Positions 9,565-62,249 are shown, numbered from the stretch's first letter. The stretch is 64,000 nt of DNA from Planctomycetota bacterium (GCA_965223545.1 OZ245006.1:6528001-6592000); one strand, 5' to 3'. The notes: generated by a model not told the origin, from the letters alone. Numbers and translations: made by a program.

Positions 9565-9652
9565 GGTTTCTCGTCCGCCGGAGCCCGAGCACCGGGAGCG
9601 GAGTGGCGCGCGGCTCGCGTCCCGCTGCTTCGGCGCGTTGGAACGAACACCG

Positions 9653-10426: not shown

Positions 10427-10472
10427 TGGTGGGCAGGGGCGGATTTGAACCGCCGACCCCAGCATTTTCAGT
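10427..10472 (-). mobile_element. 3' half of tRNA-Phe(GAA); probable att direct repeat
   Basis: Minus strand ACTGAAAATGCTGGGGTCGGCGGTTCAAATCCGCCCCTGCCCACCA: anticodon loop, T-arm and CCA present; no 5' half. Confidence 0.88.
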
Positions 10473-26873: not shown

Positions 26874-26935
26874 GTTCTGGGTGTCCCCTTCAGTGTTGAC
26901 AGCGAATGGTAAGAGAAGTTGTTGACGAAGGGGTT
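26874..26935 (+). repeat. Direct repeat copy 1, left of the MerR cassette (res/att-like)
   Basis: gttctgggtgtccccttcagtgttgacagcgaatggtaagagaagtt...aaggggtt matches 30315-30385. Confidence 0.8.
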
Positions 26936-27052
26936 GGACGCCTAAGCCCCTGTGACGTGGGGCTTTGTGGCTCGGCCGCGCAATTGCTTGTCGGCACCTG
27001 AAACCCTTCAGTCGGGTGTAGAGTTCATGGTGACCGTGCTACGCTCGTTTCG

Positions 27053-27511
27053 ATGGCCGAGACCTACACAATCGGGCGCCTGGCGAAGGTCGCCGAAGTT
27101 CCCATCTCAACCGTTCGCTACTACGAACAGCGCGGACTCTTGAAGCCGGAACGGCGAACTGAGTCCAACTACCGCGTCTACGGCCCGGCCAGTTTGAAGC
27201 GCTTGCGGTTTATCCGCATCGCGCAGCAAAGCGGCTTCACTCTCGAAGACATCGTGCTCCTTCTCCAGCTTCGCGACCGTGGAAGTGCCACCAGCTGCAA
27301 GCAGGTGGAAAACCTCGTCGACAAGCGACTCGACAACATCACGGCCCAGCTTCGGGAACTTCGACGCGTGCAAAAGGTCCTCCAGTCGACGCTCGAGTGG
27401 TGCAGGAACCCTCGCGTGAAAGGTCGCTGCCGAGTGCTGGACGACTTGGACGGGCAGGCCGCAAGTTCAGGGAAACGCAAATCACCGAGACGTGCCGGAA
27501 AGGCCTCTTGA
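27053..27511 (+). CDS. MerR-family heavy-metal-responsive regulator
   Basis: TIGRLAK..TVRYYEQRGLL, YRVY, GFTLEDI; Cys in SCKQ plus C-X8-C, the three-Cys pattern of Hg/divalent-metal sensors. Confidence 0.93.
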   Translation: MAETYTIGRLAKVAEVPISTVRYYEQRGLLKPERRTESNYRVYGPASLKRLRFIRIAQQSGFTLEDIVLLLQLRDRGSATSCKQVENLVDKRLDNITAQLRELRRVQKVLQSTLEWCRNPRVKGRCRVLDDLDGQAASSGKRKSPRRAGKAS

Positions 27512-27539
27512 CCCTTCACCATACTTCAAGCTGTAGCCT
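27508..27539 (+). promoter_or_regulatory. MerR-type promoter P1
   Basis: TTGACC - 20 bp - TAGCCT with imperfect dyad; ATG 7 nt downstream. Confidence 0.7.
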
Positions 27540-27546
27540 TTCCCTC

Positions 27547-28269
27547 ATGCACCCCATCCTGCGCCCAGGCCTCAGTTCGGTTCTGCTGCTCTCCCTGGTG
27601 GCTTGCTCTGAGCCACTAACAGACTCGCCAACTCACGCGCCCACTCCGGAGCTCTCGAAGCTCGTCTCGATTCGCGTCGCTGGTTTCATCGAGGCTGCAG
27701 GCATCACCTGAATGGGTTGACCGAACAAGGTCAAAGAAGCCCTGGATGGGCTTCAAGGCGTTCAGGATGTGCAGGTTGACCTCGAAGACGACAGGTTCGA
27801 TGTCACTTACAACCCGAGGGAAGTGTCTTCCGACACCTTGCTCGAGGCGGTCAGAAAGCTCGACTACACGCCGCAGCTGGTAACGCGCGCGGAGGGTGGG
27901 GGAGAGGCGCCTGCGGACCAGGTCGATGCGGCGCAGCTCCCCAAGGAACTTGCGGCGCTCTTCGCCAAGGCTCGGGAATCCAATAAGGTCGTGCTGCTCA
28001 AGTTCTCCGGGCCAGGTTGACCGCCGTGCAAACGCATGGATGCCGTGACGTATCCGCACGAAGTCGTGAAGAAGGAACTTGATGAACACTGGGTCACGAC
28101 TCACTACGACGTGAGTGAAGCGAAGCGTGTCGCTACCCTCTTCGGAGTCTCGGCGATTCCTGTTGCTATTGGTGTGACCGCTGACGGAATGGTTCTGGGG
28201 CGAGTTCTTGGGTTTGTCGAACCCGAGCGTTTCGAGAAGGAACTCGAGACACTTCGCGCCAAGCGCTAG
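27547..28269 (+). CDS. Putative triple-selenocysteine lipoprotein: HMA domain (UxxU) + thioredoxin-like domain (UxxC), 240 aa
   Basis: One frame with TGA at 27709, 27718 and 28018: GIT-U-MG-U-PNKVKEAL and FSGPG-U-PPC-KRM; lipobox LVAC; downstream hairpins; ends at TAG. Confidence 0.85.
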
Positions 28270-28865
28270 TTCGGGACCACCTTGTAGCCAGTGCGCTCAA
28301 CCGCCTGAACGACTTGCTCGTTGGCGGGAGGAGAGTTCGGCTCGAAGAACACGGTCGCGAGGCCTTCGCTGTAGTTGACGGAAGCACTTGCTACACCGGG
28401 AACCGTGAGAAGCTCCTTCTTCACGTGCACCGTGCAAGCCTCGCACGTCATGCCTTCGATTCGAACGGTCGCCTTCTCGGTCGCTGCTGCATTCGACGGG
28501 GTCGCCTCTCCCTGGTCAGGCGCGATGAGGCCTACGTAGTTCGGGAAGAGGCCAACAACCAACACCAGGGCCGTTGCGACCCAGAGCATCGCTCGGTTGA
28601 AGCGCACGAACTTGTTGCTCGGAGTCGCGCAAGTCTCCCCTGGTGCGCACGCCTGTTTCCGAAAGTAGGTGAAGTAGAAGCCACCAGCGAGAAGCACCGC
28701 TGCGCCACCGAGGAAGTAGGGACGCACAGCTTCAAACTGCGCCGAGATTCCAGCTGCAGATACGCCGAACGCAAGAAGCAGAAGGGGAAGCCAGCAGCAC
28801 GCAGACGCCACAACAGCTGCAAGCACCGACCCGAATGCGGCCAACATCCCACCGCGACCACTCAC
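28266..28865 (-). CDS. MerT-like metal transporter fused to an HMA (MerP/CopZ-like) domain
   Basis: ASACCWLPL in TM1, RPYF, CAPGETC loop, GMTCEAC. Confidence 0.88.
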   Translation of the reverse strand: MSGRGGMLAAFGSVLAAVVASACCWLPLLLLAFGVSAAGISAQFEAVRPYFLGGAAVLLAGGFYFTYFRKQACAPGETCATPSNKFVRFNRAMLWVATALVLVVGLFPNYVGLIAPDQGEATPSNAAATEKATVRIEGMTCEACTVHVKKELLTVPGVASASVNYSEGLATVFFEPNSPPANEQVVQAVERTGYKVVPN

Positions 28866-29278
28866 GATGTGGCCTCCTTGACGGCTTTTCTGAGGTCACC
28901 AAGACAGCACGACCCCTTCGGGTTCATCGTCTCGCAGCTGCATTCGCCAGCCTTCACCTTCGCGGTCACGGATTCCACGACGGCGCTCTCTCCGGTGCGA
29001 AGCACTTCGTCGCGGATGCTCTCCGCGCTGTGCCCGAAGCAGTAGCAGACCGGGTGGGGAGCGTCTGTCTCCTTCACCCCGACTCGGACCGCGACGTCGT
29101 CCTTGAGCAGCGTCGTTCCATCGCCTGCGAAGTAGACAACATCACAGTCGGGCTCTGGGCAAAACACCCACTGTCGCCCCTCAACAGCGCCTCGCACTTC
29201 TTCTCGCGCGAGGCTCTCGACCGTGACGGTCTTGACCGGCTTTCCTGGCGTCTTGGTCTTGGGGCAGAGAAGGTCCAT
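28862..29278 (-). CDS. CopZ N-terminal-like Zn/(2Fe-2S) Cys-rich protein
   Basis: FCPEPDCDVVYF, VCYCFGH, CSCETMNPKGSCC. Confidence 0.8.
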   Translation of the reverse strand: MDLLCPKTKTPGKPVKTVTVESLAREEVRGAVEGRQWVFCPEPDCDVVYFAGDGTTLLKDDVAVRVGVKETDAPHPVCYCFGHSAESIRDEVLRTGESAVVESVTAKVKAGECSCETMNPKGSCCLGDLRKAVKEATS

Positions 29279-29284
29279 GCTCCC

Positions 29285-29316
29285 ATTTACGGCCTTGAAC
29301 CCTGCTTTAGGGTCAA
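29285..29316 (-). promoter_or_regulatory. MerR-type promoter P3
   Basis: TTGACC - 20 bp (ctaaagcagggttcaaggcc) - GTAAAT, just upstream of the ATG at 29278. Confidence 0.65.
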
Positions 29317-29353
29317 GGGTTTTTCGGAGAATGACCAAGAAGCCCGCGCAACG

Positions 29354-30154
29354 TCACTTGTGGAGCAACTCGACGACCTTGTCCACGGCGTTCTTCGACG
29401 GCACGCGCACCGCGCCTACGAACTTGCCGTCCGCATCCAACACCACCAGCCCTGGGATGGGGGCGTCCTCGTGCTCGTGCTTGAACTTGTAGGCATGCGG
29501 TCTCCTCACGATGACGCGCACGGCATTCTTCGAGGTTTCGATGACTTGCTCGTCGTTCACGATGTCTGAGAGCGCACGGCTCTCAAAGCGGGTGCTTGGT
29601 CATCAAGTCTCTGCGCCAGAAAGCCCCACAAGAACGAGCTTCTTCTCCTTCTTGGCCTTCGCAACCGCATCAGCCAGCGACGCAAGGCTTGCGAACTGCC
29701 ACTCAAGGCGCGGCTTCTCGGGAGCCTTCATCTCCTTGGCCCCGAGCGATACCGAGACTTTCTCTTCCTTCAACGTCTTTGCGCGCAGCACGACGGCCTC
29801 GAGCTTCTTCCCAGGCTTACTCACACGCAACACATCGGCGATGTCGTCCTGGCTGAAGAGTTCGACTGCGCCGAGCTTCACGAGCACGTCACCGGCCTCG
29901 ATGCCTGCTTTGCCAGCGGCGCTGTCCTTCTCCACATCTGAGACAACCTGGCCGCGAGCTCGGACCTCGAACTTGAGGTCGAGCTGCTTGACCTCTTCCT
30001 TGGATGGAGCGCGCGTGCTCGCGCCGAGTGTTGCGACCTTGACGAGCTTCGGTTCCTTCTCTTGAGGGTCTTGGTCTGGCTTCTCTTGCGCTGCGACCGG
30101 GCAGCAACAGAGAAGCCCAACGACCGGGCCTAGAAGGTGACGGGTCCTGACCAT
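29354..30154 (-). CDS. Putative selenoprotein: signal peptide + PDZ + thioredoxin-like domain with tandem UU, 266 aa
   Basis: TGA TGA at 29605-29600 within KLVLVGLSGAET-U-U-PSTR; frame stays open into a Trx C-terminal half (IPGLVVLDADGK); 9-bp hairpin at 29565-29587. Confidence 0.8.
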
Positions 30155-30187
30155 GCTTTCGGTTCCTGGGGGGGTTGGAGGGCTGGC

Positions 30188-30219
30188 ATTGTCCACCCTC
30201 AACCATGGTGCATGGTCAA
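30188..30219 (-). promoter_or_regulatory. MerR-type promoter P2
   Basis: TTGACC - 20 bp (atgcaccatggttgagggtg) - GACAAT. Confidence 0.7.
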
Positions 30220-30314
30220 CTACTCCGCGAGGGGAAGTCGACCCGGGCGATGGGCGCCTTGGAAGGTGAGTCGGCGATGTCCTGCCGGACCGCTCACCAC
30301 CGTTCCCTAACGTC

Positions 30315-30385
30315 GTTCTGTGTGTCCCCTTCTGCCGTTGACAGTGAACGGTAAAAGAAGTTATCTTGCTTCTGAAAAAGGGGTT
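30315..30385 (+). repeat. Direct repeat copy 2, right of the MerR cassette and upstream of the recombinase operon
   Basis: gttctgtgtgtccccttctgccgttgacagtgaacggtaaaagaagtt...aaggggtt. Confidence 0.8.
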
Positions 30386-30713
30386 AGATCGGAAGGGGAG
30401 ACGCCGTTTGAAACCACGGAAGAGGCCAACACCACACTACTCGGACGACGCACCATTCTGCTGGATCGATGAGTGGTGGACCTGGGTGTTCACGCCTACC
30501 GGTAGCGTGCCGTGGCTCGAGCGCGAGGGTCGAGAACTTGAGGACGGCATGCGGCTTGAGGTTCGGCTTGGTCCTGAACGTTGGCTTCCGGTCTACGTGC
30601 GGCGGCGCGGGGAGGTGGTCACGTTCTGCTACCCCTTGCCGCACATCGATGACGAGCTCCTGATCGACATCCCGCACGAAGCTGAGCTTCGCCTTGTGGA
30701 GCCTGCGGCATGA
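30366..30713 (+). CDS. Small protein, possibly DUF5348-like (start uncertain)
   Basis: LEDGMRLEVRLG..W pattern; ATGA overlap with the recombinase. Confidence 0.5.
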   Translation: MLLKKGLDRKGRRRLKPRKRPTPHYSDDAPFCWIDEWWTWVFTPTGSVPWLEREGRELEDGMRLEVRLGPERWLPVYVRRRGEVVTFCYPLPHIDDELLIDIPHEAELRLVEPAA

Positions 30714-31810
30714 CGGCGGGGCTCCTCACCGAGACGCCGCTGTCCAGACCGACGGACTCGAAGCCAGTTCGCGAGTTGCCGCGGATTCTTGAGGGACATG
30801 GCTCGCCCGCGGTGCGTCGGCGCGTCGAGAGCTTCGTCGCCTCTGTCGAAGCGATGTTCGAGGCCTGGGTCGCAAGGAGGGACAACCCGCACACTCAGCG
30901 CGCCTACCGGCAGGACGTTATGCACTTCGTTCGGTTCGCCGGGATCGAGTGGCCACGCGACGACTGGAACTTGCTCAAGAGCACGGTGCCCGACGTCCAG
31001 GAGTGGCGGACCTTCATGATCCAAGTCGATGGTAGCGCCCCAAAGACGGTGCTCCGTCGAGTGACGTCGCTCTCCCGGTTCTTCGAATACATGCGTGAGC
31101 AAGCGGCGGAGTTTCGGCTTCCCGTGATCGTGCCGAACCCCGCGCACAAGAACCACATCCCGCGCGAGGATGCAGAGCCAGTGGCGCCCACGAAGGAGCT
31201 CACGTTCTCTCGAGTTCGGCAACTCAAGGAGCTCGCCGCGGGCGAGTCGGTGCTGGCCTACCGCGACCGCGCGATCATCTACTTTTACCTCTACACCGGT
31301 GCTCGGATCGGCACCGGTTGTTCGGTTCGCGTCGAGGACTGTCACCTCGACCCCGAGGATCCCTACTTGATGGTGCGGGAGAAGGGAAAGGGCGCGAGCC
31401 GCAGGCGCGTTGGCATCAACGCGCAGTGCGCAGAAGCGCTCGCGGAATACATCGAGGAGGCCAGGCTCGGTAGCGGGCCCCTCTTCCGCCCGCGGGCGAA
31501 TTCTCGGTCGGCAAAGCTCGCAAGCCGGGCGATGACCACGGTCACGATGTATCGGTTGCTGAAGAGTTACCTCGAGCGGTTGCCGCGCGCGTCACGCGAG
31601 GTTCAGCTTCCAGACGGAAGCATCGTACGTCGGTGCATCTACACGCCTCATTCGCTTCGAGCGACAGCCGCAACCCAAGCGGATGAGGTTGGCGTTCCGA
31701 TCACCAAGATTCAGGAGCTGCTCGGCCACAAGCAGATCAAAACAACTCAGGTCTACGTCAAGCGCAAGCGCGGAACGAAGGAGAGTGCGTCGCATCAGCT
31801 GCCGTTCTGA
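30710..31810 (+). CDS. Tyrosine recombinase (XerC/resolvase-like)
   Basis: TQRAYRQD SAM domain, RDRAI..TGAR, KG, HSLR, LLGH, TQVY. Confidence 0.93.
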   Translation: MTAGLLTETPLSRPTDSKPVRELPRILEGHGSPAVRRRVESFVASVEAMFEAWVARRDNPHTQRAYRQDVMHFVRFAGIEWPRDDWNLLKSTVPDVQEWRTFMIQVDGSAPKTVLRRVTSLSRFFEYMREQAAEFRLPVIVPNPAHKNHIPREDAEPVAPTKELTFSRVRQLKELAAGESVLAYRDRAIIYFYLYTGARIGTGCSVRVEDCHLDPEDPYLMVREKGKGASRRRVGINAQCAEALAEYIEEARLGSGPLFRPRANSRSAKLASRAMTTVTMYRLLKSYLERLPRASREVQLPDGSIVRRCIYTPHSLRATAATQADEVGVPITKIQELLGHKQIKTTQVYVKRKRGTKESASHQLPF

Positions 31811-31874: not shown

Positions 31875-34800
31875 TCATGACCGCTGCCGTCGGATGCCCC
31901 GTCCGAACAATGCATACAGTGCCGGCAACACCATGAGCGTAAGGAGGTTGTCAGCGATGACTCCGCCGATCACGACCGTCGCCAGGGGCCTCTGCACCTC
32001 GGCGCCGACGCTTGTGTTCAACGCCATCGGAACGAACCCGAGCGCGGCAACCAGCGCCGTCATCAGGATCGGGCGCAGGCGCAGGAGTCGGGTCGCCTCG
32101 ATTGCGTCCTCCACCGAGTGCCCCTCGTCGTCGATCTTGCGGCGGATCGTCGAGACCAGCACGAGGCCGTTGAGCACCGAGACACCCGAGACCGCAACGA
32201 AGCCGACCCCGGCGGATATCGTGAACGGCATGTCCCGCAGCCACAGCGCGACAATCCCACCGAACGCCGCGAACGGCGCGCCCGTGGCGATCAAGAGTGC
32301 ATCGACCAACGAGCGTGTGCTCAGGTAGAGCAAGAACAGGATTGCCGCCAACGCGATGGGAATGATGATCATCAGCCGGGTGCTTGCCCGCTGCAGATGC
32401 TCGAACTGGCCGCCGAACGACACGAAGTAGCCGGGGGGCAGCTCGACGTCTGCCGCGATCGTCTTCTGTGCCTCTTCCACGAAGCCACCCAGGTCGCGAT
32501 CCCGGACGTTGGCCTGCACGATCACGCGCCGCTTCTGCCACTCCCGGTTGATCGTCGATGGCCCCTCGACCTGGCGGAGATCGGCGAGCTCGGAGATCGG
32601 AATGCGTTCGCCGGCCTCCGTCGGCACCCAGAGCTTGCGCACAGCCATCGGATCCGCGCGGTACCCGTCGGCCAACCGCACGACGAGGTCGAAGCGGCGC
32701 TGGCCCTGACGCACTTCGCCGGCCTTGATCTCGCCGAGTGCCTGGACCAGGTCCAGCACGTGTTGACCCGGGATGCCGTGGCGTGCCAAGGCGTCGCGCT
32801 TGAGCTCGACCTCGAGTACCGGCTGCCCGGTGACCTGCTCGGCGGTCACATCGGCTGCCCCCGGAATCCTCTCCAGGACTTCTTGGATCTCCGCGGCCTT
32901 CGCCTTCAGCATCTCGAGGTCGTCGCCGAACAGCTTCACGCCGAGATCGGCGCGGATACCCGCCGTCATCTCGTTGACGCGCATCTCGATCGGCTGGGTG
33001 AAGATTGCCCGCATTCCGGGCATCACTTCGAGCGCGGTCTGCATCCTCGTCGTCAGCTCGGACTGTGTCTCCGCCTTCGTCCACTTGGAGCGAGGCGTGA
33101 GCGTGACGAACACGTCCGTGACCTCCAGCCCCATCGGGTCGGTAACAACCTGCGGAGTGCCGGTGCGACTCCAGACGTCCCGAATCTCGTCGGGGAATTC
33201 ATCCTTCAACAGCTGCTCGAGTCGTAGCCCGTAACGCACCGACTCATCGAGAGAGACACCGGCCAGCCGCACGGTGTTGATGGCGATCGCCTCCTCGTAG
33301 AGACGCGGGATGAAGGTGGTGCCGAGACGCGTCGCCAGCAGAGCGCCCACGACCAGAACGGCGAGACCGCCCAGCGCCACCGTGCGCCGGAAGCGAATCG
33401 CGAAGCGGACGACCGGGCGGTAGACCCACTGCGCGAATCGGACGATGGGGTTCCCTCGTTCGGCTGCTTTCCTGCCGAGCCCGAAGCTCGCAAGCACCGG
33501 GATCAGCGTCAACGAAAACACCAGCGAACCGGTCAATGCGAAGATGACCGTGAGCGCCATCGGCCGGAAGAGCTGGCCCTCGATGCCTTCGAGCAGCAGA
33601 ATCGGCAGGTAGACGATCAGGATGATCAGCTCACCGAACATCGTCGGCTTGCGCACCTCGAGAGTAGCGTCCCGTACGATGTCCAGGGTTGGTCTCGTGC
33701 CGCGCTCGAGTCCCAGGCGCCGCACGCAGTTCTCGATGATGATCACCGAGCTGTCGACGACGAGACCGAAGTCGATCGCGCCGAGGCTCAGCAGACTCGC
33801 GGCGATGCCGAAGCGCAGCATCGCGCTGAACGAGAACAACATGGCCAGCGGGATGGCCGCGGCGACGATGAGTCCTGCACGCAGGTTGCCGAGGAACACG
33901 AACAGGACGGCGATCACCAGGAGCGCGCCCTCCAGGAGGTTCGTGCGCACCGTCGCGATCACGCGGTCGACGAGTTCGGTCCGTTCGTAGAGGACATCGA
34001 TCTCTACGCCCTCGGGCAGGCTGTTCCCCGCCTCTAGGAGCCGCTTCTCGAGCCGCTGCGTCACGTCGTGACTGTTCTCACCCATCAGCATGAAGCCGAG
34101 CCCCAGCACGACCTCGCCCTTGCCGTTGGCCGTCACCGCGCCGCGTCGGATCTGGTGACCATCGCGCACATCGCCGACATCGCGCAGAAGCACCGGCACG
34201 CCGTCGTGTGCCGTCACGACGATCGACTCGAGCTGGGCGATCGTCGTCGCCAGGCCGATGCCGTGCACTAGATGCAGCTCTCCGGCATCGGCGATGACGC
34301 CACCGCCAACGTTCTCGTTGTTCTTGCGCAGCGTTTCGATGACGTCGTCAAGCGTCAGGCCGTACTTGATCAGCCTGTAGGGGTCGACGATCACGTGATA
34401 CTGCCGGCGCTCGCCTCCCCAAGTATTCACTTCGGCCACGCCGGGAACGGTGAGCAGCTGAGGGCGGATGACCCAGTCGTGCAGCGTGGTCAGCTCGGCC
34501 AGCGAGTGCTTCTTGCCGCGCACCACGTAATGCAGCACTTCACCCAGCCCGGTCGCCACCGGCCCCATCTGTGGCCTCGGCAAACCCGCGGGCAGCTCGA
34601 CTGCCTGCAGCCGTTCGTTGATCAGCTGCCGCGCGAAGTAGATGTCCGTCCCCTCGTCGAACACGGCCACGACCTGCGAGAACCCGAACTTCGAGACCGA
34701 GCGCACGTCGCGCAGCGCCGGCAGACCGCCGATCGTCTGCTCGACAGGGAACGTGATCTGCTGCTCGATCTCGGTGGGGTTCAGCGACGGCGCCCCGGTG

Positions 34801-34949
34801 TTGATCTGCACCTGCACCGGAGTCGTGTCGGGGAACGCGTCGATCGGCAGCCGCGCAAGTGACCAGAATCCCGCTCCGATGAACCCAGCAGAGAAAACGA
34901 GGACGATGAGCCGATTGCGCAGCGACCAGGAGACGATGGCGTCGAACAT
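31875..34949 (-). CDS. czcA: CusA/CzcA heavy-metal efflux RND permease
   Basis: PIDAFPD, SLGAIDFGLVVD, RLRPILMTALVAALGFVPMA, GAEVQRPLATVVIGG. Confidence 0.93.
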   Translation of the reverse strand: MFDAIVSWSLRNRLIVLVFSAGFIGAGFWSLARLPIDAFPDTTPVQVQINTGAPSLNPTEIEQQITFPVEQTIGGLPALRDVRSVSKFGFSQVVAVFDEGTDIYFARQLINERLQAVELPAGLPRPQMGPVATGLGEVLHYVVRGKKHSLAELTTLHDWVIRPQLLTVPGVAEVNTWGGERRQYHVIVDPYRLIKYGLTLDDVIETLRKNNENVGGGVIADAGELHLVHGIGLATTIAQLESIVVTAHDGVPVLLRDVGDVRDGHQIRRGAVTANGKGEVVLGLGFMLMGENSHDVTQRLEKRLLEAGNSLPEGVEIDVLYERTELVDRVIATVRTNLLEGALLVIAVLFVFLGNLRAGLIVAAAIPLAMLFSFSAMLRFGIAASLLSLGAIDFGLVVDSSVIIIENCVRRLGLERGTRPTLDIVRDATLEVRKPTMFGELIILIVYLPILLLEGIEGQLFRPMALTVIFALTGSLVFSLTLIPVLASFGLGRKAAERGNPIVRFAQWVYRPVVRFAIRFRRTVALGGLAVLVVGALLATRLGTTFIPRLYEEAIAINTVRLAGVSLDESVRYGLRLEQLLKDEFPDEIRDVWSRTGTPQVVTDPMGLEVTDVFVTLTPRSKWTKAETQSELTTRMQTALEVMPGMRAIFTQPIEMRVNEMTAGIRADLGVKLFGDDLEMLKAKAAEIQEVLERIPGAADVTAEQVTGQPVLEVELKRDALARHGIPGQHVLDLVQALGEIKAGEVRQGQRRFDLVVRLADGYRADPMAVRKLWVPTEAGERIPISELADLRQVEGPSTINREWQKRRVIVQANVRDRDLGGFVEEAQKTIAADVELPPGYFVSFGGQFEHLQRASTRLMIIIPIALAAILFLLYLSTRSLVDALLIATGAPFAAFGGIVALWLRDMPFTISAGVGFVAVSGVSVLNGLVLVSTIRRKIDDEGHSVEDAIEATRLLRLRPILMTALVAALGFVPMALNTSVGAEVQRPLATVVIGGVIADNLLTLMVLPALYALFGRGIRRQRS

Positions 34950-34956
34950 TGAGTCG

Positions 34957-36492
34957 CTACTTGCCGAGGTGATCGACCTCGCAGCATCCCGCGCCGATGC
35001 TGCCCTTCTTGAGCTCGGTCTTGAGCAGGAAGCTGCCTCGGGTGACCACGTGATCACCCGCGTTCAGCCCCGAGAGAACCTCGTAGTACTCGCCCGTGTC
35101 GTAGCCGAGGTGGAGCTTTCGCGGCGCAAACTCGGTTCGCGACCGCTGCACGAAGGCGACGTTGCAGCACCCTTCCCACTGCACGGCGGCCTTCGGAACG
35201 AACAAGGCTGGCTCCCCGTCACGAGTCACGATCCGGACCCGGCCGAACATGCCCGCGCGCAGCTGGCCACGGTCGTTCTCGAGCTCCGCACGCACCTTTA
35301 CCGTCCGCGTCCGCGGATCGACTTGCGTGCTGATCCAGGCCACGCGTCCCGCGAAGGTCTCGCCGGGTATGCCATCCAAGTTCAGGAGAAGCGCCTGGCC
35401 GGCGGACACACCTGCGATGTCACCCTGCTCGACGTCCGCGAGGACCCAGATGCGCGACGTGTCCGCGACCGAGACCAGCGCACCCGACGGATCAGCGAGT
35501 TGGCCAATCACCGCGCGAAGCTCGACGACGATTCCAGAGAACGGCGACACGAGCTCCAATCGCGTCGACGTGTCGCCGTTCTCCAGGACTTTCGTGATCT
35601 TCGCCGCGTCGAGACCGAGGTTGCGGAGCTGCTGCTCCGCCGCTGAGACGGCGATGCGGCTTTCGGTCAGATGCGTGCTCGACTCGAGGACGTCCTTCTC
35701 GGTCGACAGACTCTTCTCGAGTAGTTGCTTCTCTCGCGCGTGGTTCCTCTCCCACAGCTCCACGCGTGCGGACGCCTGGAGAAGATCCGACTTGGCCGTG
35801 CCGAGCGCCGCGGAGTCGACGACGAGCAGCACGTCGCCGGTCTCGACGCGATCACCGAGTCGCTTGCGCACCTCGACCACGTTGCCCGGAGCGCGCGACG
35901 CCAGCACGGCGTGGCGTGTTGCGTCGTAGTACAGCTCGGCCGGAGCGGAAAGCACCCGCCGCAACGGGGCGCGGCTCACTTCGGCGACCTCCAGTCCCGC
36001 GCGAGTGGCAACGTTGGGATTCGCGAAGCGGATGGTGCTCCGCTCCGTGGCACACGTCACCGACGGCATGCGGCGGACTCTCGGTGAATCATCTCGGACG
36101 ATCTCGATCTCAGGAGTCAGTGCCGGGAGCACGCCACCCGTAGGGTCGTACTTGCGGTACTTCTCCAGTGTGCCCGGATTGCAGAGCTCGCACTGTGACT
36201 CCGACACGCCGTGTCCCCCGCACCAATCGTTGCGTGCACGGAACACCGGCTCCAGGTCGGCTCTGCAGCGCGAGCAGATTGCCTCGGGGACCCCGTGCTC
36301 TTTGCAGAAGCCCATCGACTCGAGCAGCGCCGGATCGCAGAACGGGCAGCGCTCGATGCCATGCTCGGCGCACGCACCCGCTGCACTCTCGCTGCGAGTC
36401 GCAAAGAACTCCGTCGCCCCGAAGATACCGCCACCGATCGCGGCGACGACCGCGACGAGGAGGATGCCCAACAGCTTCGCCTTCGTGCTCAT
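34957..36492 (-). CDS. RND periplasmic adaptor with N-terminal Cys/His-rich module
   Basis: MFP core (VDPRTRTVKVRAEL, LRAGMFG); three CxxHG..CxxC repeats; EGCC and terminal AGCC. Confidence 0.9.
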   Translation of the reverse strand: MSTKAKLLGILLVAVVAAIGGGIFGATEFFATRSESAAGACAEHGIERCPFCDPALLESMGFCKEHGVPEAICSRCRADLEPVFRARNDWCGGHGVSESQCELCNPGTLEKYRKYDPTGGVLPALTPEIEIVRDDSPRVRRMPSVTCATERSTIRFANPNVATRAGLEVAEVSRAPLRRVLSAPAELYYDATRHAVLASRAPGNVVEVRKRLGDRVETGDVLLVVDSAALGTAKSDLLQASARVELWERNHAREKQLLEKSLSTEKDVLESSTHLTESRIAVSAAEQQLRNLGLDAAKITKVLENGDTSTRLELVSPFSGIVVELRAVIGQLADPSGALVSVADTSRIWVLADVEQGDIAGVSAGQALLLNLDGIPGETFAGRVAWISTQVDPRTRTVKVRAELENDRGQLRAGMFGRVRIVTRDGEPALFVPKAAVQWEGCCNVAFVQRSRTEFAPRKLHLGYDTGEYYEVLSGLNAGDHVVTRGSFLLKTELKKGSIGAGCCEVDHLGK

Positions 36493-37115
36493 TCCTTCGA
36501 TTCGCCGGATGCGTACTTGCGGAACTGTGCGAGGGATCCGGGGTTGCAGATCTCACAGTGCGACTCGGGCAGGCCATGTTCGGCGCACCAGTCGTTCTTC
36601 TTGCGGAAGGCAGCTTCCAGGTCGTCGCGACATCGCGTGCAGACCGCCTCGGGAACGCCATGACCACTGCAGAAACCCATCGACGAAAGCAGTGACGGAT
36701 CGCAGAACGGACATCGCGCGATTCCGTGTTCCTCGCACTTCGCCGGCGTGGAACGGCTGTTGTCGTACTGGGCAAACTTCGCGAGGGCGCCCGGGTTGCA
36801 GGTCTCGCACTGCGACTCCGGTAGCCCGTGTTCGGCACACCAGTCGTTCTTGCCTCGAAACGCCGCCTCAAGGTCGGCGCGGCACCGTGTGCAGATCGCT
36901 TCGGGGACGCCGTGTCCGCTGCAGAAACCCATCGACCCGAGGAGAGACGGGTCGCAGAACGGGCATCTCGCGACCCCATGCACCTCGCAAGCCGCTGGCG
37001 CCGCCTTTTCGGATTCGGAGCCGGACCCGAGAAACACCTTCGTGCCGTACAGGCCGCCCACCGCAGCGGCCGCTGCGACGACCAGGGCGAGGACGATCCA
37101 CATCGTGTTCTTCAT
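36489..37115 (-). CDS. Membrane-anchored Cys/His-rich repeat protein
   Basis: N-terminal TM/signal; six CxxHG...CxxC repeats arranged as two tandem modules. Confidence 0.85.
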   Translation of the reverse strand: MKNTMWIVLALVVAAAAAVGGLYGTKVFLGSGSESEKAAPAACEVHGVARCPFCDPSLLGSMGFCSGHGVPEAICTRCRADLEAAFRGKNDWCAEHGLPESQCETCNPGALAKFAQYDNSRSTPAKCEEHGIARCPFCDPSLLSSMGFCSGHGVPEAVCTRCRDDLEAAFRKKNDWCAEHGLPESHCEICNPGSLAQFRKYASGESKE

Positions 37116-38497
37116 GGTTGTTTCCTCGGAGGAGGACTGAACAGAGTCTCGCGCGGGACACCGGTCGCGAGCTCGAGGTCGGACAGCGCGGTCGCCGCCT
37201 GCTGCAGGCGCTGGAGATGGTCGCGACGAGCCGCGAGCAGGTTTCGCTGTGACTCGAGAACGGGCAGGATCGTTGATTTCCCGACCCGATAGGACTCGCG
37301 CGCGAGGTTGAGAGTCTCTTGCGAGCGAACCAGAATCTGCTCCGCGTAGATCCGCACCGTGTCTCGACTGGCTTCGGTGCGAGCGCGCGCCACCCCGACG
37401 TCCCGTCGAGCGTCCAGGCGGAACGTCTCGAGGACTTGCTGCTGCCGGGCAAAAGAGTCCGCTGCTTTGGCGATCTGCGCCTGGTTCTGGTCGAACACCG
37501 GCAACTCGAGCCGCACGGCCGGCCCGACGTTCCAATCGCCCTCCTTCTCCGCGGCTACGCCGACGTCGAACACGCGTACAACGCGACCTCGTTGCCGTGC
37601 CAGCTCAGCGGCTGCCTCCTCCATGGCTTGCTGCGCGGCGCGCACGTCGAGGCGGTGTGCCTCTGCAAGCTCGTGCAGCCGCTCGGCTGACGGCAACGGG
37701 GCTGCTTGATCTTCGAAGTCGGTCCCCAGGGAACACGCCAACGGCAGTGCCTCGAGCCCGAGATGGTTCGCCAGCTCCTGTCGCGCTTCTAGCACAGCCA
37801 GCCGGGCATCGCGCAAGCCGACGTCCGTCGCGGCCAAGTCGAGGCGCGCGAGGTTCTCGTCGATCGCCGTGGCGGCACGTGCAGCGACGCGTTCTTCAGC
37901 CAACTGGAATAGGCGCACCGCGGTCGCCCGGTTCTCTTCCGCGATCGCGACGAGGCGCTCCGCCGTGACAGCGTCGATGTAGGTGGATCGAACCGCTCCA
38001 GCGAGGCTGACGGCGGTGTGGGCGACCTGCAGAACCTGCCGGCGGAGGGCTGCGTCCGCCGTATCGATGCGCGCGGGGAGTTGCCACAGGTCGAGGAGGC
38101 TCCCGAGAAGGTTGCCTTCGACGTCCGTGCCGCCGCCGTTGGTCGGGAAGCGCAGTGCGAGCATCAGCGAAGGATTCGTCAACATGCCCGCCTGCACTCG
38201 GTCGGCCTTGGCCATGCCAATGGTCCGGAACGCGCCCTGGATTGCGGGGTTGTTGAGCATGGCGACTTCGACCGCCTCGCGCAGCGAGAGGTCGCCGTCC
38301 AACAGCTCACGCGCACGCTGCGCGCAGGAGTCTTCTTCCCCAGGTCGGTACGCAGACTGCACGCCGGTTGCCGCACGAATCTCTTGAACCGCGCGGTCGT
38401 AGTCGGGGCTGGGATCAACGGTGGCACACGCCGTGAGCAAACACCACGAACCTGCAGCCGCGCAGGCCACGCGTAGGCGACTACTGCTGCACGCCAC
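37112..38497 (-). CDS. TolC-family outer-membrane efflux protein (start approximate)
   Basis: Lipobox LTAC, AMLNNP, LELPVFDQNQ, ESYRVG. Confidence 0.88.
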   Translation of the reverse strand: MACSSSRLRVACAAAGSWCLLTACATVDPSPDYDRAVQEIRAATGVQSAYRPGEEDSCAQRARELLDGDLSLREAVEVAMLNNPAIQGAFRTIGMAKADRVQAGMLTNPSLMLALRFPTNGGGTDVEGNLLGSLLDLWQLPARIDTADAALRRQVLQVAHTAVSLAGAVRSTYIDAVTAERLVAIAEENRATAVRLFQLAEERVAARAATAIDENLARLDLAATDVGLRDARLAVLEARQELANHLGLEALPLACSLGTDFEDQAAPLPSAERLHELAEAHRLDVRAAQQAMEEAAAELARQRGRVVRVFDVGVAAEKEGDWNVGPAVRLELPVFDQNQAQIAKAADSFARQQQVLETFRLDARRDVGVARARTEASRDTVRIYAEQILVRSQETLNLARESYRVGKSTILPVLESQRNLLAARRDHLQRLQQAATALSDLELATGVPRETLFSPPPRKQP

Positions 38498-38852
38498 CGA
38501 GCTTCCCTGCCACGGATTCCGCGATCTCGAGCCAAAACGGATCCGCGATCCGGTAGTACGCGAGCTTGCCGTCCGCGCGGAAAGCGACGGCACCGAGACG
38601 ACGCAGCTCGCGAAGCTGCTGCGACATGCCCGACATCGACAGGCCGAGGACATGCGCCAGGTCGCAAACGCAGAGCTCACGACCCTCGAGCGCCTTGAGG
38701 ACGCGCAGGCGTCCCGGGTGTGCCAGCACCTTGAGCGCGGCGGCGACCTCTCGGCTGACCTCCATCGGCGGCAGCGCCGCACGGGCCGCGGTTGCCCTTG
38801 GCCCGTCGACGCAGTCGACCTCGCACACGCCCTCTTTGACCCGTCGCTTCAT
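38481..38852 (-). CDS. ArsR/SmtB metalloregulator
   Basis: LAHPGRLRVL, ELCVCDLA, SQQLRELR, GKLAYY; N-terminal CEVDC. Confidence 0.9.
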   Translation of the reverse strand: MKRRVKEGVCEVDCVDGPRATAARAALPPMEVSREVAAALKVLAHPGRLRVLKALEGRELCVCDLAHVLGLSMSGMSQQLRELRRLGAVAFRADGKLAYYRIADPFWLEIAESVAGKLGGVQQ

Positions 38853-38853
38853 G

Positions 38854-38879
38854 ATTCTTGATTTCGTAAACTGAGGAAT
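38854..38879 (-). promoter_or_regulatory. Candidate ArsR/SmtB operator
   Basis: AT-rich imperfect inverted repeat attcttga...tgaggaat abutting the arsR start. Confidence 0.5.
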
Positions 38880-39453
38880 CGTTCTTGAGCAGAATACTCC
38901 CGGATTCCGTTACCGCAACTCCGAGTGGGGGCTTGTCCCGTCGCTGTCAAGGGCGGTTCTCGTTCGTCGACGCTTCGATGCGCTCCAGGGGGGGGGAAGC
39001 GATTCCGGCTCCCCGGGCAGACCCATGGGCAGCGGTAGGGCTCCCGTCGGGGCCCGGCAGCCGGGCAGGCACCAGTTGTCCCTGAGTTGCAGGCAGGTCC
39101 TCGGGTGGAGCCACACTCCGGTGACCAGCGGGAAGCAGGGGACAGCACTGCAGTGCAAGGACCGTCGCGGAGCGCTGCGGTCGGCCTTCACGCAGACTCA
39201 TGAGCGACTTGAGGCTCTTCCTCGACTGGGCGCCCGACCATCACACGACATGTGCTCTTGGATGCGGTCGAGTCGCTAGTCGTGGTGAGGCTGGGAGTTC
39301 AGTTCGTCGACGATCCGTTGAAGCACGTAGCTGAGTGCACTCCGCTCAGGTGCGACAGCTGTTGCTCCAAACACGACACGGTAGCAGGTTACGAAGGGCC
39401 CGCAGGATGGCCTTCAAGTCTTGTTACCATGGTTGCCGACGACTAGTTTCGAG

Positions 39454-39921
39454 ATGGTGACTTCCCGTACGCACACCAAGCGCGCGACGACCTGGCTCTG
39501 CCTGGCGATTGCGGTGCTCATCGCCCTGATGCCGGCGGGCGGGCTGATGGTGTGTTGGGGTGACGACGGGCACGTGCGCGTCGAAGTTGCCAGCGAAACC
39601 GGCTCATGTCCTTGCGAGGGGGACTCGGCGGGGGAAACCGGCCGAGCAAGCGTTCATCAGCAGAGCAAGGACCGCCACCCACCGTGCGACGATGTTGCGG
39701 TTGAGGCACCGAGAGTCTTCAAGGACGCAGAGCTCGGCCAGAAGCTGCCTCGGTCCACCGACAACCAGCCAGATGACGACTCGGCAGCGGGGGCAGCCTG
39801 GGGAGCGCATGGCAGCTGGGGAACCGGGGTAGGCAGTCCGGTTGCACGCTGGTCTAGTCCGGCAGCTGTGCTGCCGCGACAGCAGCTCGACCACGGGCGC
39901 ACTGTTGTCCTGCTGATCTGA
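39454..39921 (+). CDS. Hypothetical protein heading the second metal-efflux operon
   Basis: Signal/TM segment, VCWGDDGH, CPC, PCDD, terminal TVVLLI. Confidence 0.65.
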   Translation: MVTSRTHTKRATTWLCLAIAVLIALMPAGGLMVCWGDDGHVRVEVASETGSCPCEGDSAGETGRASVHQQSKDRHPPCDDVAVEAPRVFKDAELGQKLPRSTDNQPDDDSAAGAAWGAHGSWGTGVGSPVARWSSPAAVLPRQQLDHGRTVVLLI

Positions 39922-39936
39922 TCCTCCGGGGTTCTG

Positions 39937-41442
39937 TTGCTTCGTCTCCGATCCGGAGACGTCCTGAGAACGCCGGAGGAAGTCTTGGAACTGCAGTCAC
40001 AAACCGCCACAGAGGCGGCATCTCTACAGCATCTACGAACGCCAGCGATGTGCTTGGTCGCGCTCGCGCTGACGTTGTCAGCGTGCGCAACCTACGCACC
40101 GGACCCTCTACCTCCTGACCGCTTCGAGGCCCTGTCCACGGAGCGCCAGGATATCGGTCCGAGTGGTCCGAACGACGAGCCGGGTGAGCTTTCGCTTGGC
40201 AAAGCCGCCGACTGGCTGCGAACACGAGGCCCGCGCGTTCGAGAAACGATTGCTGCGTATCGCACAGCGCTTGCGCGAGCTGGTGTCCCCACACCTTGGC
40301 CAAATCCAGGGATCGCTGTAGGGCCTGAGTTCGGCTGGGGCGCCGATGTTGACGTCAACAAGGTCGTGCCCTTTGGGAGCCTGAACTTCACGATCCCTCT
40401 GAGTGGGAGGCTGGGACGGCAAGACGAGGTGAACGAGGCGTTGGCGCACGCCGCACGTGCCGAGGCACTTGCGACGTTCCGCGAACTGTATCTGGACCTT
40501 CGAGCCCGGTACGTGCGACTCGCAGTTGCGCAGAAGCGCGAAGCAGTCAGAGGGAACGTCCTGGAGGCCGCACAGGCCTCGCTTGTCGTTGCCAACGATC
40601 TCGTTGCGGCGGGTGCGGCGACCGCGCTAGATGTTTCGCTGTTCCAGCTCGAGCACGCTCGCGAGCGAAGCCGAGCGTTGGGTGCCGCACTCCAGGTAAC
40701 CAACTCCGCTTCGGACCTTTCGGATCTCGTCGCGGTGAGCCCGTGGCGACTTGGAGCGCTTCCAGAGACAGCACTTCCCACGCCCCCAGAGGACGCCCCG
40801 GAGTTCGGCGAGCTGCGAGAGCTCATCGTCAAAGAGCACCCTACCCTGTTTCGCCTGCGGGCCGACTACGAGGTGGCCGAACGGCAGCTCCACCTCGAGA
40901 TCACCAAGCAATACCCCGATCTTACGTTTGGGTCGTCTCTCGGCGGCGAAGCTGGAGAGCGCACAACGATACTCGGGCTGAGCTTGGGGATAGAGATCCC
41001 GCTCTTTGACCGCAACCAGCAGGCCATCGCACAGGCCATCAAGCGACGAGAGGAATTGCGCATAGGGTACGAGAGCTCAGCTCACCGCATCCTCTCCGCG
41101 GTCGAACGCGCGCGCGCAACCGTGGTGCTGGCATCCGCGCAGCATCGCATCCTGCGAGATGAGGTGTTGCCCGCAGCAGAAGACAACGTCGAGATTGCGC
41201 GACAGTCGCTTGCCGCTGGCACGGCAGGTGCGCTCCAGCTTCTCGATGCCGAGCGCAGTTTCCGTCAAGTTCAAATCGAGGTCCTGGAAGCTCGGCTTGC
41301 GCAACAGCTCGCGTGGTCAGACCTCGAGAAGGCGGTCGGATTTCCGCTCGTCGAATTCCCTTCGGACCCGGCTGCCGGAGGGCGCACGCCACCGGGTGAA
41401 CTCACCGATCAACAAGGCAAGACTGAGGGAGAAGGACGATGA
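39937..41442 (+). CDS. TolC-family outer-membrane efflux protein (start may be 40048)
   Basis: LSAC lipobox, WPNP, QYPDL, IPLFDRNQ. Confidence 0.88.
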   Translation: MLRLRSGDVLRTPEEVLELQSQTATEAASLQHLRTPAMCLVALALTLSACATYAPDPLPPDRFEALSTERQDIGPSGPNDEPGELSLGKAADWLRTRGPRVRETIAAYRTALARAGVPTPWPNPGIAVGPEFGWGADVDVNKVVPFGSLNFTIPLSGRLGRQDEVNEALAHAARAEALATFRELYLDLRARYVRLAVAQKREAVRGNVLEAAQASLVVANDLVAAGAATALDVSLFQLEHARERSRALGAALQVTNSASDLSDLVAVSPWRLGALPETALPTPPEDAPEFGELRELIVKEHPTLFRLRADYEVAERQLHLEITKQYPDLTFGSSLGGEAGERTTILGLSLGIEIPLFDRNQQAIAQAIKRREELRIGYESSAHRILSAVERARATVVLASAQHRILRDEVLPAAEDNVEIARQSLAAGTAGALQLLDAERSFRQVQIEVLEARLAQQLAWSDLEKAVGFPLVEFPSDPAAGGRTPPGELTDQQGKTEGEGR

Positions 41443-43079
41443 TCAGAAAGCACCAGTGGGAGATCACCATCATCGCAACAGTGTGCACGCTCGGTGGGCT
41501 AATCTCCGGCGGCCTGGTCGCAGGCGGTTTCGGCGCAAAACCGGAGACCGCGGAGGCTGACACCGGTGCCGCCCACGGCCCGCACCTTCCTGCGGCGACG
41601 CTTGAGAACCTCGGCGTTCGTATCGACCAGGTCCAGCCCACCACGTTCTTCAGGACCGTGTCGGTCGCGGCCGTAGTCGTTGACACGCCCACCACAGAAC
41701 AACCCGTCTACGCCCCGATCGGCGGGCGCATCGAGAGCATCGATGTGGAACCCGGCACAGTTGTGGCCCCTGGCAAGGCAGTCATCACTCTGGTGCGGGA
41801 TCCACTCCCGCGTCCGCAGCTGACCCTGACCGCCGAAGTGCTGCGGCCCGCTCAGGAGAGACTGCACCAGAGCGTACTCGAGCTACGCAAGTCGGGAGAA
41901 GAGGTTCGTATCGCAAGCACGGAGCTGGAACGAGTCCAGAAGTTCACGGGCAGGGTCGGTGGACGCGACCTTCCGATCATCCCGAGGCAGCGCGCGATCG
42001 ACCTTCGCTACCAGCTCTCGAGAGCCGAGAAGGCGTACGAGCAGGCACGGCTCGAACTCAAGAAGCACGGCCTCACCGATGCGCAAATAGCCGAAGTCGA
42101 GGGTGGTGCGCCGCTGCCGGAGTTCAACGAAGAAACGTGGCAACGAGCGCTTGCCCGCAACGGCCTGTGGCCAGCCGAAGCCCAGCAGCTCAGCGCGGCG
42201 CTCCCCAAGTCACTTCGTGCTCTCCCCTGGGTCACCGCGACCGTTGGCGAACTGGCCGCGAGCGGGCTCGCGACTCCAGAGCTCGCGCAGTGGATCTCGG
42301 CGGAAGAAGCTGCTCCCCACTTCCTCGACATCGGCGTGCTCCTGCAGCGCGGACACACGCTTGAGGATCTGAAGCGCCTCCACGCCTTGAATGCACTGGA
42401 GCCAGTCGTGCGCGTCGTGGCACCCGAGCTCGAGCAGGATGGCTCTTGGGACGTGCTCGACGTGCTAACCAAGCGCGGTGCCAAAGTAGAGGCTGGCGAG
42501 AGGCTTCTCACTCTCAGCGACCCGCGACGGCTGTTCCTGCGCACTGAGCCCGTCGGCGGTGAAGTGGGATCGGTCCTCATTGCCGCCAAGGAGCGGCACG
42601 CCATCGCTGCGACACCACTCATCCGGAACTCTGGGCCGGCGCTCGAGAAGCTAACGGTCAGCTACGTGCAAAGCTCTCAGGAGAACGAGGGCACGATTGC
42701 CTTTGTTGAAGTCGAGAACTCTATTCTCTCGCAGATCGATCGAGGACGCGGAAGAAGTTCCCGCACATGGTCGCTTCGCGACGGCATGCGCTACCTACTG
42801 AACGTGCCAACCGCGAAGTTGGACAAGGTCTATGTCTTGCCTTCCTCCGCAGTCACCGAAGACGGTCCCAACAAGGTTGTGTTCCTCCAGGACGGCGACA
42901 GCTTCAGGCCGGTCCCGATCGTGATCGCGTACCAGGATGACGAAGTCGTTGTCGTCCCCACGACCAAGGAAGTCGCTCTCTTCCCCGGCGATCTCGTCGT
43001 GCAATCCGGAGCGTTCGAGCTCGGCCTCGCGATGAAGGCTGGAGGTGCCGTGGACGCCCACGCAGGTCACAACCACTAG
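41439..43079 (+). CDS. Divergent RND periplasmic adaptor
   Basis: Lipoyl-like halves (APIGGRI..GTVV; GAKVEAGE), VLPSSAV, His-rich end HAGHNH. Confidence 0.8.
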   Translation: MIRKHQWEITIIATVCTLGGLISGGLVAGGFGAKPETAEADTGAAHGPHLPAATLENLGVRIDQVQPTTFFRTVSVAAVVVDTPTTEQPVYAPIGGRIESIDVEPGTVVAPGKAVITLVRDPLPRPQLTLTAEVLRPAQERLHQSVLELRKSGEEVRIASTELERVQKFTGRVGGRDLPIIPRQRAIDLRYQLSRAEKAYEQARLELKKHGLTDAQIAEVEGGAPLPEFNEETWQRALARNGLWPAEAQQLSAALPKSLRALPWVTATVGELAASGLATPELAQWISAEEAAPHFLDIGVLLQRGHTLEDLKRLHALNALEPVVRVVAPELEQDGSWDVLDVLTKRGAKVEAGERLLTLSDPRRLFLRTEPVGGEVGSVLIAAKERHAIAATPLIRNSGPALEKLTVSYVQSSQENEGTIAFVEVENSILSQIDRGRGRSSRTWSLRDGMRYLLNVPTAKLDKVYVLPSSAVTEDGPNKVVFLQDGDSFRPVPIVIAYQDDEVVVVPTTKEVALFPGDLVVQSGAFELGLAMKAGGAVDAHAGHNH

Positions 43080-43090
43080 GAGGCGCGATC

Positions 43091-46761: not shown

Positions 46762-46788
46762 AACCAACTCGACCGGGGGCGCCAGGCG

Positions 46789-62241: not shown

Positions 62242-62249
62242 TCGCTGCT

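Follow-up and report, generated by a model that had tools for sequence, protein, structure and literature searches.

What would a gene cassette do that resembles a mercury resistance operon, in which no mercuric reductase (MerA) is recognized, and whose exported proteins appear to be built around selenocysteine (Sec)? The question is posed by 64,000 nucleotides of a Planctomycetota bacterium genome (GCA_965223545.1 OZ245006.1:6528001-6592000; the window). Positions 26,874 to 30,385 hold the cassette: a MerR-family regulator; an HMA-thioredoxin (HMA-Trx) lipoprotein gene with three in-frame TGA codons; a PDZ-thioredoxin (PDZ-Trx) gene with two; a MerT-HMA fusion; and a small protein labelled CopZ-like. 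A first-pass annotation, made from the sequence alone, had read the whole as a mobile, selenium-based system for metal capture and had placed the five genes where we find them. What appears to be new is a family of thioredoxins with two consecutive Sec residues, together with the gene set around it; by cut-off, neither cassette selenoprotein belongs to a catalogued family.

Read with TGA as Sec, the PDZ-Trx gene encodes 266 residues. Its two TGA codons are adjacent (29605-29600; U184 and U185, motif ETUUPS), an adjacency absent from the first-pass annotation. In two independent alignments the first Sec falls at the position of the nucleophilic Cys, the second falls beside it, and Ser or Thr occupies the resolving position. 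This register within a thioredoxin domain suggests that a vicinal Sec-Sec (UU) pair has taken the place of the usual CxxC disulfide. Modelled by AlphaFold2 with Cys substituted for Sec, the domain is a predicted thioredoxin (predicted local distance difference test, pLDDT, 95) whose fold continues through the TGA codons. Its active site follows the first core strand and the conserved Pro is present, as in thioredoxin folds; the nearest structures are DsbD-gamma, DsbH, and related folds (Z 11.0-11.5; root-mean-square deviation 2.3-2.7 over 107-110 residues).

The tandem is conserved. When TGA was not built into the search, PDZ-Trx turned up in 5 of 90 genomes of the family and in 22 of 400 of the phylum, and the copies that span the site read TGA-TGA in 29 of 30 cases and TGC-TGA in one. 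Setting the host aside, tandem TGA is present in 24 of 25 matches from the phylum search and in 5 of 5 site-spanning matches from the family search. (Pattern searches demand TGATGA, and are excluded from these counts.) Purifying selection persists past the TGA codons, with pN 0.13-0.19 against pS 0.50-0.60 in five pairs.

Protein databases tell the same gene in pieces. Among the best 150 of 310 protein representatives, 23 stop exactly at the site (21 ending in GAET, two in ETC), 101 start beyond it, and 26 span it: 11 with Cys-Cys, two with neither Cys nor Sec, and 13 that are generic CxxC thioredoxin domains. The Cys-Cys homologues retain the architecture of the UU forms, and three of them nest within the UU clade in a quick tree (weak support, many open forks). 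The two halves of the UU gene are annotated as separate open reading frames (ORFs), and all 11 matches among database proteins are 178-186 residues long and cover only the part upstream of the TGA codons; the gene is indeed hidden from standard gene callers, as had been proposed. A subfamily of UU thioredoxins lacks the PDZ domain (L035-L039, L041-L043) and carries a C-terminal region of 150-200 residues that resembles, by eye, Cys-free HMA-type repeats. It also has Cys-Cys versions (P0018, P0030).

Can the host decode these codons? No merA, selA, selB, selC, or selD had been seen in the window, and a tRNA search of its 64 kb found none; the machinery that the cassette was supposed to borrow lies elsewhere in the genome, where selA, selB, selD, and tRNA-Sec are all above cut-off. 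(No merA is above cut-off anywhere in the genome.) Only one UCA-anticodon tRNA was called in the host, a canonical tRNA-Sec (74.2 bits), and selD bears its own in-frame TGA (UxxK) with a hairpin. Many other Sec-type motifs share that hairpin type, including UxxC thioredoxins, a TxxU peroxiredoxin, and a GUFW MsrA, so the host decodes Sec widely. Sequence evidence of this kind makes it almost certain that all five cassette TGA codons are decoded as Sec. Carriage of the UU gene follows the same machinery: selA is present in 21 of 22 UU carriers versus 293 of 400 sampled genomes (nominal Fisher p 0.012, the genomes not being independent), and the one carrier without selA has selB and tRNA-Sec. 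The host chromosome (G000:C1) contains 36 candidate Sec sites, some with unrecognised motifs: NNWUC at 492917; CTUNN at 6151628; RGUTU at 3168601; and FLUSAGQ at 6247186. The gene at 1338116 has a hairpin nearly identical to that of the UU gene.

The bacterial Sec insertion sequence (SECIS) model of PMC13188914 calls for a hairpin 16-37 nt beyond the UGA that has G within the first two positions of its loop. Hairpins with such a loop G, at such a distance, stand at all three cassette sites, and hairpins of this kind trail just 145 of 5460 host TGA codons that have coding-like upstream sequence. The UU hairpin has 7 bp and an NGUNN-type loop. Across 49 copies 96.2% of 343 cells are paired, with 17 compensatory cells, and 0 of 500 shuffles reach as high; shifted registers reach at most 63% pairing, and changes fall mostly at codon third positions. 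The structure was derived from the same sequences on which pairing was counted, 36 of the 49 copies come from the TGATGA pattern search, and kin are not independent, so these figures are not probabilities. The UxxU hairpin behaves similarly: in 23 copies, 96.3% of 161 cells pair, 16 cells are compensatory, and none of 500 shuffles scores as high. At the UxxC site the hairpin is conserved in 12 TGA versions and is not seen in 10 Cys versions.

The second selenoprotein, HMA-Trx, comprises 240 residues when read with Sec and has, by inspection, a lipobox (LVAC). Two of its TGA codons (27709 and 27718; U55 and U58) form the UxxU of the HMA domain (TUMGUP), and the third (28018; U158) belongs to the UxxC of the thioredoxin domain (GUPPC). 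Its model consists of HMA and DsbD-gamma-like domains separated by a low-confidence linker (predicted template modelling score 0.69). The UxxC position carries Cys in P0185 and in 10 CxxC loci. Homologues with Cys at the TGA positions, for which the first-pass annotation had called, thus exist for UU (11 CC, one CU) and for UxxC; the UxxU site aligns to generic HMA CxxC only. As a query against genome contigs, the HMA-Trx protein retrieved no related loci.

The two selenoproteins travel together. Counts of loci refer to 34 genome and 50 metagenome loci, after removal of chance pattern matches without homology (3 of 39 genome, 7 of 57 metagenome) and two duplicates. A UxxU-HMA domain lies near the UU gene in 20 of the 34 genome loci and in 20 of the 50 metagenome loci, many of which are short; it is fused to the UU protein in eight of each. 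The fusions occur in both domain orders, which suggests tethered domains rather than a fixed complex. The longest chain (L082:5526-7280, plus strand) is HMA(UPAGU)-HMA(UxxU)-Trx(CxxC)-PDZ-Trx(UU), 585 residues in one frame with six predicted Sec, and L066 and L083 encode predicted five-Sec chains. A fused HMA-Trx-PDZ-UU gene also stands within a record labelled Candidatus Paceibacteria (L071).

The cassette is not an assembly error: contigs of two studies reproduce it wherever they cover it. Contigs of runs X1 and X4 (study P1, possibly the source) span the stretch with 0 differences. Three pieces of X5, which comes from a second study, also agree at every base that they cover between 22000 and 30476, leaving a gap of 8 bases (27408-27415). 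The exact gene order recurs in L080, L087, and L118. The MerT-HMA fusion is all Cys, with no in-frame TGA; its motifs are intact (Cys-Cys in the first helix, a second Cys pair, a C-terminal GMTCxxC HMA), and it scores 115 against the MerTP model NF033556 (cut-off 180). The 138-residue protein, which has no signal peptide by inspection, is a member of NF047645 (CopZ_Nterm_CC; 125.5 bits, cut-off 100). Its label, CopZ-like, is therefore only loosely right: the protein belongs to the CopZ-N-terminal Zn/[2Fe-2S] family and is not an HMA chaperone.

Alignment with Hg-MerR (5crl, 4ua1), 5gpe, and CadR shows that the regulator keeps the three Cys of MerR/PbrR/CadR-type sensors; their C-x8-C spacing equals that of Hg-MerR. 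The regulator is below the cut-offs of the ZntR, MerR, CadR-PbrR, and CueR models; ZntR gives the best score, and the Hg MerR model 109 (cut-off 151). The three promoters, P1, P2, and P3, share TTGACC and a 20-bp spacer; in relatives they are conserved. An operator matrix trained only on eight sites from three relatives, applied to the 8.1-Mb genome, ranks them among the top four sites (scores 44.4, 40.9, and 31.0; fifth-best 16.0), so that both the three matching promoters and the MerR-type control of the first-pass annotation hold up. The operator is present in 7 of 10 MerR-bearing loci (5 of 8 minus the training loci) and in 0 of 24 others. A fourth copy in the genome (G000:C1:1556378-1557296, minus strand) precedes a predicted exported Cys-Cys protein of about 148 residues (RRCCPF) and a chromosomal merR paralogue. 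Between −10 box and start codon lie 6-7 nt (27508-27547, 29278-29316), which suggests leaderless mRNAs, and the P1 −35 box overlaps the merR stop codon.

Is this, then, a mer operon? The MerA model TIGR02053 finds nothing above cut-off in the host (91% complete; best 345.8 versus 454), where the two matches resemble flavoproteins of the dihydrolipoamide-dehydrogenase type, without the C-terminal Cys pair. It likewise finds none above cut-off in five of five other cassette genomes, which are incomplete metagenome-assembled genomes (MAGs). The cassette is therefore not a mer operon. Nor was a reductase found among the 131 neighbouring ORFs scanned. (In that survey, 131 of 262 ORFs were scanned by Pfam, 91 were assigned by BLAST, and the rest were omitted.) Related loci are nearly all from Planctomycetota; a few UU genes lie near ars or efflux genes, and some neighbours are AhpC/redoxin genes.

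Planctomycetes have a periplasm, and selenolates bind soft metals more strongly than thiols do. We give an even chance to a function in which periplasmic selenolates capture a soft divalent metal and hand it off. The MerR-type sensor would bind the metal (Hg, Cd, Pb, or Zn) and activate the three promoters, and the two exported selenoproteins would form a periplasmic metal trap and relay, replacing the Cys chemistry of mer. The PDZ-thioredoxin would hold protein clients while its vicinal Sec-Sec pair, through ligand exchange, strips metal from their thiols; in the lipoprotein, the UxxU HMA domain would be a high-affinity carrier, its metal sites kept reduced by the neighbouring UxxC thioredoxin domain. 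The metal would then pass to the Cys-only MerT-MerP fusion and to the Zn/[2Fe-2S] protein in the cytoplasm, and without MerA it would be stored or effluxed, not volatilised. (For the SAO system, the accessible part of bioRxiv 10.1101/2022.07.06.499078 argues that CC and CU motifs signal heavy-metal contact.) The single predicted hairpin per UGA pair, the predicted folds, the linkage of the selenoproteins, the shared operator, and carriage on an integrative element are well supported by sequence; export, the identity of the metal, the direction of transfer, client binding by PDZ, and the fate of the metal we infer. The full proposal, held tentatively and at less than even confidence, is that a Sec-Sec family decoded through one coding-region SECIS and SelB, together with a UxxU-HMA carrier, would constitute a MerA-independent, MerR-induced, periplasmic route that strips soft metal (e.g. 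Hg(II)) from damaged proteins by selenolates, and is mobile among Sec-using planctomycetes.

Several observations weigh against capture and hand-off of a metal. Only 10 of 34 genome loci have MerR nearby (within the stretch examined), and 9 of 34 have zf-CopZ plus MerTP; many UU genes sit among housekeeping genes, and the metal role may therefore hold for part of the family only. A MerT-like importer without MerA brings metal into the cytoplasm, an ill fit with Hg resistance, and both thioredoxin domains resemble DsbD-gamma and DsbH, which are redox proteins, not metal proteins. Two UU-family homologues have neither Cys nor Sec at the site, the UxxU motif is entirely gone from one homologue, and 0 of 53 matches are a Cys version of this HMA family. 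The UxxC hairpin shows no covariation (95% paired without any compensatory change; 292 of 500 shuffles reach that level). In L090 (about 7100-9700) an IS21-type element (istA/istB) interrupts the UU gene. Finally, genome G005 (92% complete) has selA, with selB and tRNA-Sec not found; its UU gene is severed from the PDZ part, and the copy looks broken.

The Dsb-like folds invite a different account, in which the thioredoxin domains work in the periplasm as reductases or isomerases (DsbD-gamma/DsbG/ScsC-like) and mend thiols oxidised under metal or other stress. The PDZ domain would select misfolded clients, a vicinal diselenide would substitute for the CxxC disulfide, the MerT-like Cys pairs and the [2Fe-2S] protein might carry electrons across the membrane, and the metal regulon would have been recruited later. 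The best fold matches (DsbD-gamma, DsbH, thioredoxins), the DegP-like PDZ domain, the absence of MerR from 24 of 34 loci within the stretch examined, and the AhpC/redoxin neighbours all agree with such repair; yet the constant partner is an HMA fold with two Sec at metal-binding positions, Ser or Thr replaces the resolving Cys, and the MerT and MerP motifs are intact. We know of no electron-relay role for MerT, which also counts against it, and we regard the account as possible, if rather unlikely. Classical mer-like uptake is less plausible still: the Sec-HMA protein would act as MerP and the MerTP protein as importer, and Hg(II) would go to a reductase encoded at another locus or to some novel reductant, for instance the [2Fe-2S] protein. 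The sensor has the three Cys of Hg-MerR at the same spacing, the MerT Cys pairs are intact, and the Fe-S protein lies in the same operon. Against these stand the lack of MerA above cut-off in the host and the five (incomplete) cassette MAGs, the lack of a reductase among the 131 neighbouring ORFs, and a regulator that scores best against ZntR and under every cut-off; we think it improbable.

Selenium itself might be the point, if multi-Sec proteins sequester Hg as stable selenolates or store Se, with inefficient UGA-UGA read-through tying the full-length product to Se supply. Up to six Sec per chain (L082), and the cost of two consecutive recoding events, would suit such a sink or sensor. Its probability appears slight: Sec is precisely at catalytic or metal sites and Cys-Cys homologues preserve the architecture, which together suggest turnover over storage. 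Least credible of all is a non-Sec reading of the TGA codons, whether as Cys or Trp or as true stops (split genes or pseudogenes). Databases do call the halves as separate ORFs, and the UU loci L084 and L090 look broken; the thioredoxin fold nevertheless passes through the TGA codons with a pLDDT of 95, Cys homologues, covarying hairpins, and in-frame fusions past the TGA codons all exist, the only UCA tRNA is the canonical tRNA-Sec, and TGA also terminates ordinary genes of the cassette.

Mobility, the remaining element of the first-pass description, has a different basis from the one given. Direct repeats (26874-26920 and 30315-30362) had been taken to bound the cassette. The repeats are real (48 columns, 85% identical, E about 1e-7, only two copies genome-wide), but find no support as element ends: L118, the closest relative (75% DNA identity, same neighbouring recombinase), possesses the right copy only, and the repeat is absent from the 90 family genomes searched and from the metagenome scan. 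Among short contig joints (side 21-36), none connects the two repeats. The right copy likely acts as a sigma-70 promoter of a small ORF and the recombinase, and the left is probably a degenerate duplicate of it. Between this promoter-like repeat and the recombinase, the two elements carry unrelated small ORFs (window 30366-30713; L118 about 5860-6120), and the position is a variable slot ahead of a conserved recombinase.

That the cassette is carried on mobile DNA is borne out by an element of about 56 kb at tRNA-Phe, with att repeats, an integrase, a TrwC relaxase, and a coupling protein (Table 1). The second att copy lies in the tRNA-Phe gene (G000:C1:6594156-6594201), about 2.2 kb past the window end, beside a tyrosine integrase; GC content is 60-66% between the copies versus 70% for the genome. 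The element also contains a ParA-like ATPase, and no mating-pair (type IV secretion) families were found among the 47 ORFs scanned. The XerC-like recombinase accompanies the cassette in L118 (86% amino acid identity), both between unrelated flanks, and in L062 a 47% homologue adjoins the UU gene. The RND genes of L087 are 93% identical and the cassette just 70%, facing the RND genes with its other end; the cassette therefore has its own history. Near the att end, an OLD-family TOPRIM ATPase followed by a UvrD helicase (60511-63989, minus strand) is presumably a Gabija-like defence pair. Elsewhere in the window (19149-21807, plus strand), three consecutive genes for a vWA protein, a PP2C phosphatase, and, by eye, a kinase-like product we take to be TerY-P-like.

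Table 1. Features of the cassette and its surroundings, in window coordinates.
Feature	Position	Strand	Basis or remark
MerR-family metal sensor	27053..27511	+	profile scores, alignment of three Cys
Predicted lipoprotein HMA(UxxU)-Trx(UxxC), 3 Sec	27547..28269	+	Pfam, TGA read as Sec
MerT-MerP-like (MerT-HMA) fusion	28266..28865	-	Pfam MerT and HMA above cut-off
138-aa Zn/[2Fe-2S] CopZ-N-terminal-type protein	28862..29278	-	NF047645, Pfam zf_CopZ
Predicted exported PDZ and thioredoxin-fold protein, tandem TGA TGA	29354..30154	-	Pfam, TGA read as Sec
Putative SECIS-type hairpin for both UGAs of UxxU	27736..27754	+	loop 31 and 22 nt downstream
Putative SECIS-type hairpin for thioredoxin UxxC	28037..28056	+	conservation in TGA versions
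Putative single SECIS-type hairpin for both consecutive UGAs of UU	29565..29587	-	loop 24 and 21 nt downstream
MerR-type promoter/operator P1	27508..27539	+	TTGACC-20-TAGCCT, 7 nt upstream of HMA-Trx ATG
MerR-type promoter/operator P2 (zf-CopZ, merTP genes)	29285..29316	-	relative-trained matrix
MerR-type promoter/operator P3 (PDZ-UU gene)	30188..30219	-	relative-trained matrix
Left copy of 48-column imperfect direct repeat	26874..26920	+	85% identical; absent from L118
Right repeat copy	30315..30367	+	holds TTGACA-18-TATCTT, kept in L118
XerC-like tyrosine recombinase	30710..31810	+	profile scan, L118 comparison
att repeat, perfect 46-nt copy of tRNA-Phe 3' end	10427..10472	-	second copy in tRNA-Phe gene
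Coupling protein (TrwB/TraD) and TrwC relaxase	51947..55920	-	ORF family scan
Efflux block: two RND/MFP/OMP sets (CzcCBA-like by reading), ArsR-family regulator, CDF transporter	31875..47691		

How does the cassette compare with known systems? It shares with the mer uptake module (MerR, MerP, MerT) a three-Cys sensor, long-spacer promoters, MerT Cys pairs, an HMA carrier, and a mobile context. It differs in that no MerA, MerB, or MerD was found here (the MerB search lacked a working positive control), in its 20-bp spacer with a TTGAACCATGGTTCAA-like palindrome, and in the addition of a Zn/[2Fe-2S] protein and of two thioredoxin proteins, predicted to be exported, with several Sec each. The NF047645 member stands alone and is paired with MerTP, not fused to CopZ. 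An HMA fold with UxxU is common to NF041115, a UxxU metal-binding selenoprotein with two Sec called "putative mercuric reductase" (PMC13188914, Table 1). Against that model the cassette scores 54.8 and 55.5 bits (cut-off 95), and the Cys-only HMA of MerTP scores higher (61.1); unlike NF041115, the cassette protein is a lipoprotein fused to a thioredoxin with a third Sec, with a longer loop before the motif. NF041199, the Trx7/PDZ (seleno)protein, likewise joins PDZ to a thioredoxin-fold domain with active-site Sec. The cassette PDZ-Trx reaches 36.9 (cut-off 300) through its PDZ domain only, 0 of 49 UU domains match at E 0.01, and the motif is UU-P-S/T here and CxxU there.

Two further systems resemble the cassette in part. 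The algal PDI_e (GUGUU) is a predicted thioredoxin-fold protein that also has two consecutive Sec; it is eukaryotic, the portion of PMC7539508 available reports no bacterial homologue, and the comparison is by description only. Unlike PDI_e, a single position-dependent hairpin in the coding sequence must here serve both codons. The SAO system (Sec-MerT, MerT_CopZ_Se) also has several selenoproteins per locus; as described in the accessible part of bioRxiv 10.1101/2022.07.06.499078, it is chromosomal, belongs to anaerobes (mostly Firmicutes), is based on an ABC transporter and a MerB-like protein, and has CC and CU motifs, not UU. The cassette, by contrast, has a Cys-only MerT, a MerR-type regulator, and an integrative-element location; its MerT-HMA protein scores 90.3 bits against NF045683 (MerT_CopZ_Se; cut-off 375) and has no in-frame TGA. 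The first-pass annotation knew of no description of such a cassette. This stands for the Sec-Sec thioredoxin family and the gene set, and fails for the theme, since UxxU metal-binding, Sec-MerT, MerT/CopZ-Sec, and Trx7/PDZ Sec families are catalogued. A literature search found no bacterial Sec-Sec protein and not this cassette; Haft and Tolstoy 2025, Deng et al. 2026, and BSepDB may hold the family.

Across the 119 prokaryotic selenoprotein families catalogued in PMC13188914 (Table 1), no UU motif appears and no protein exceeds three Sec; a conserved UU family and predicted four- to six-Sec chains go beyond it. They are natural material with which to ask how consecutive UGA codons are decoded by a position-dependent bacterial SECIS, with a bearing on multi-Sec protein production. 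Moreover, the natural CC/CU/UU series would allow dithiol, selenenylsulfide, and diselenide chemistry to be compared in one fold. If the metal role is true, these planctomycetes would possess a MerA-free resistance route, with selenium as a working part, that standard annotation has missed.

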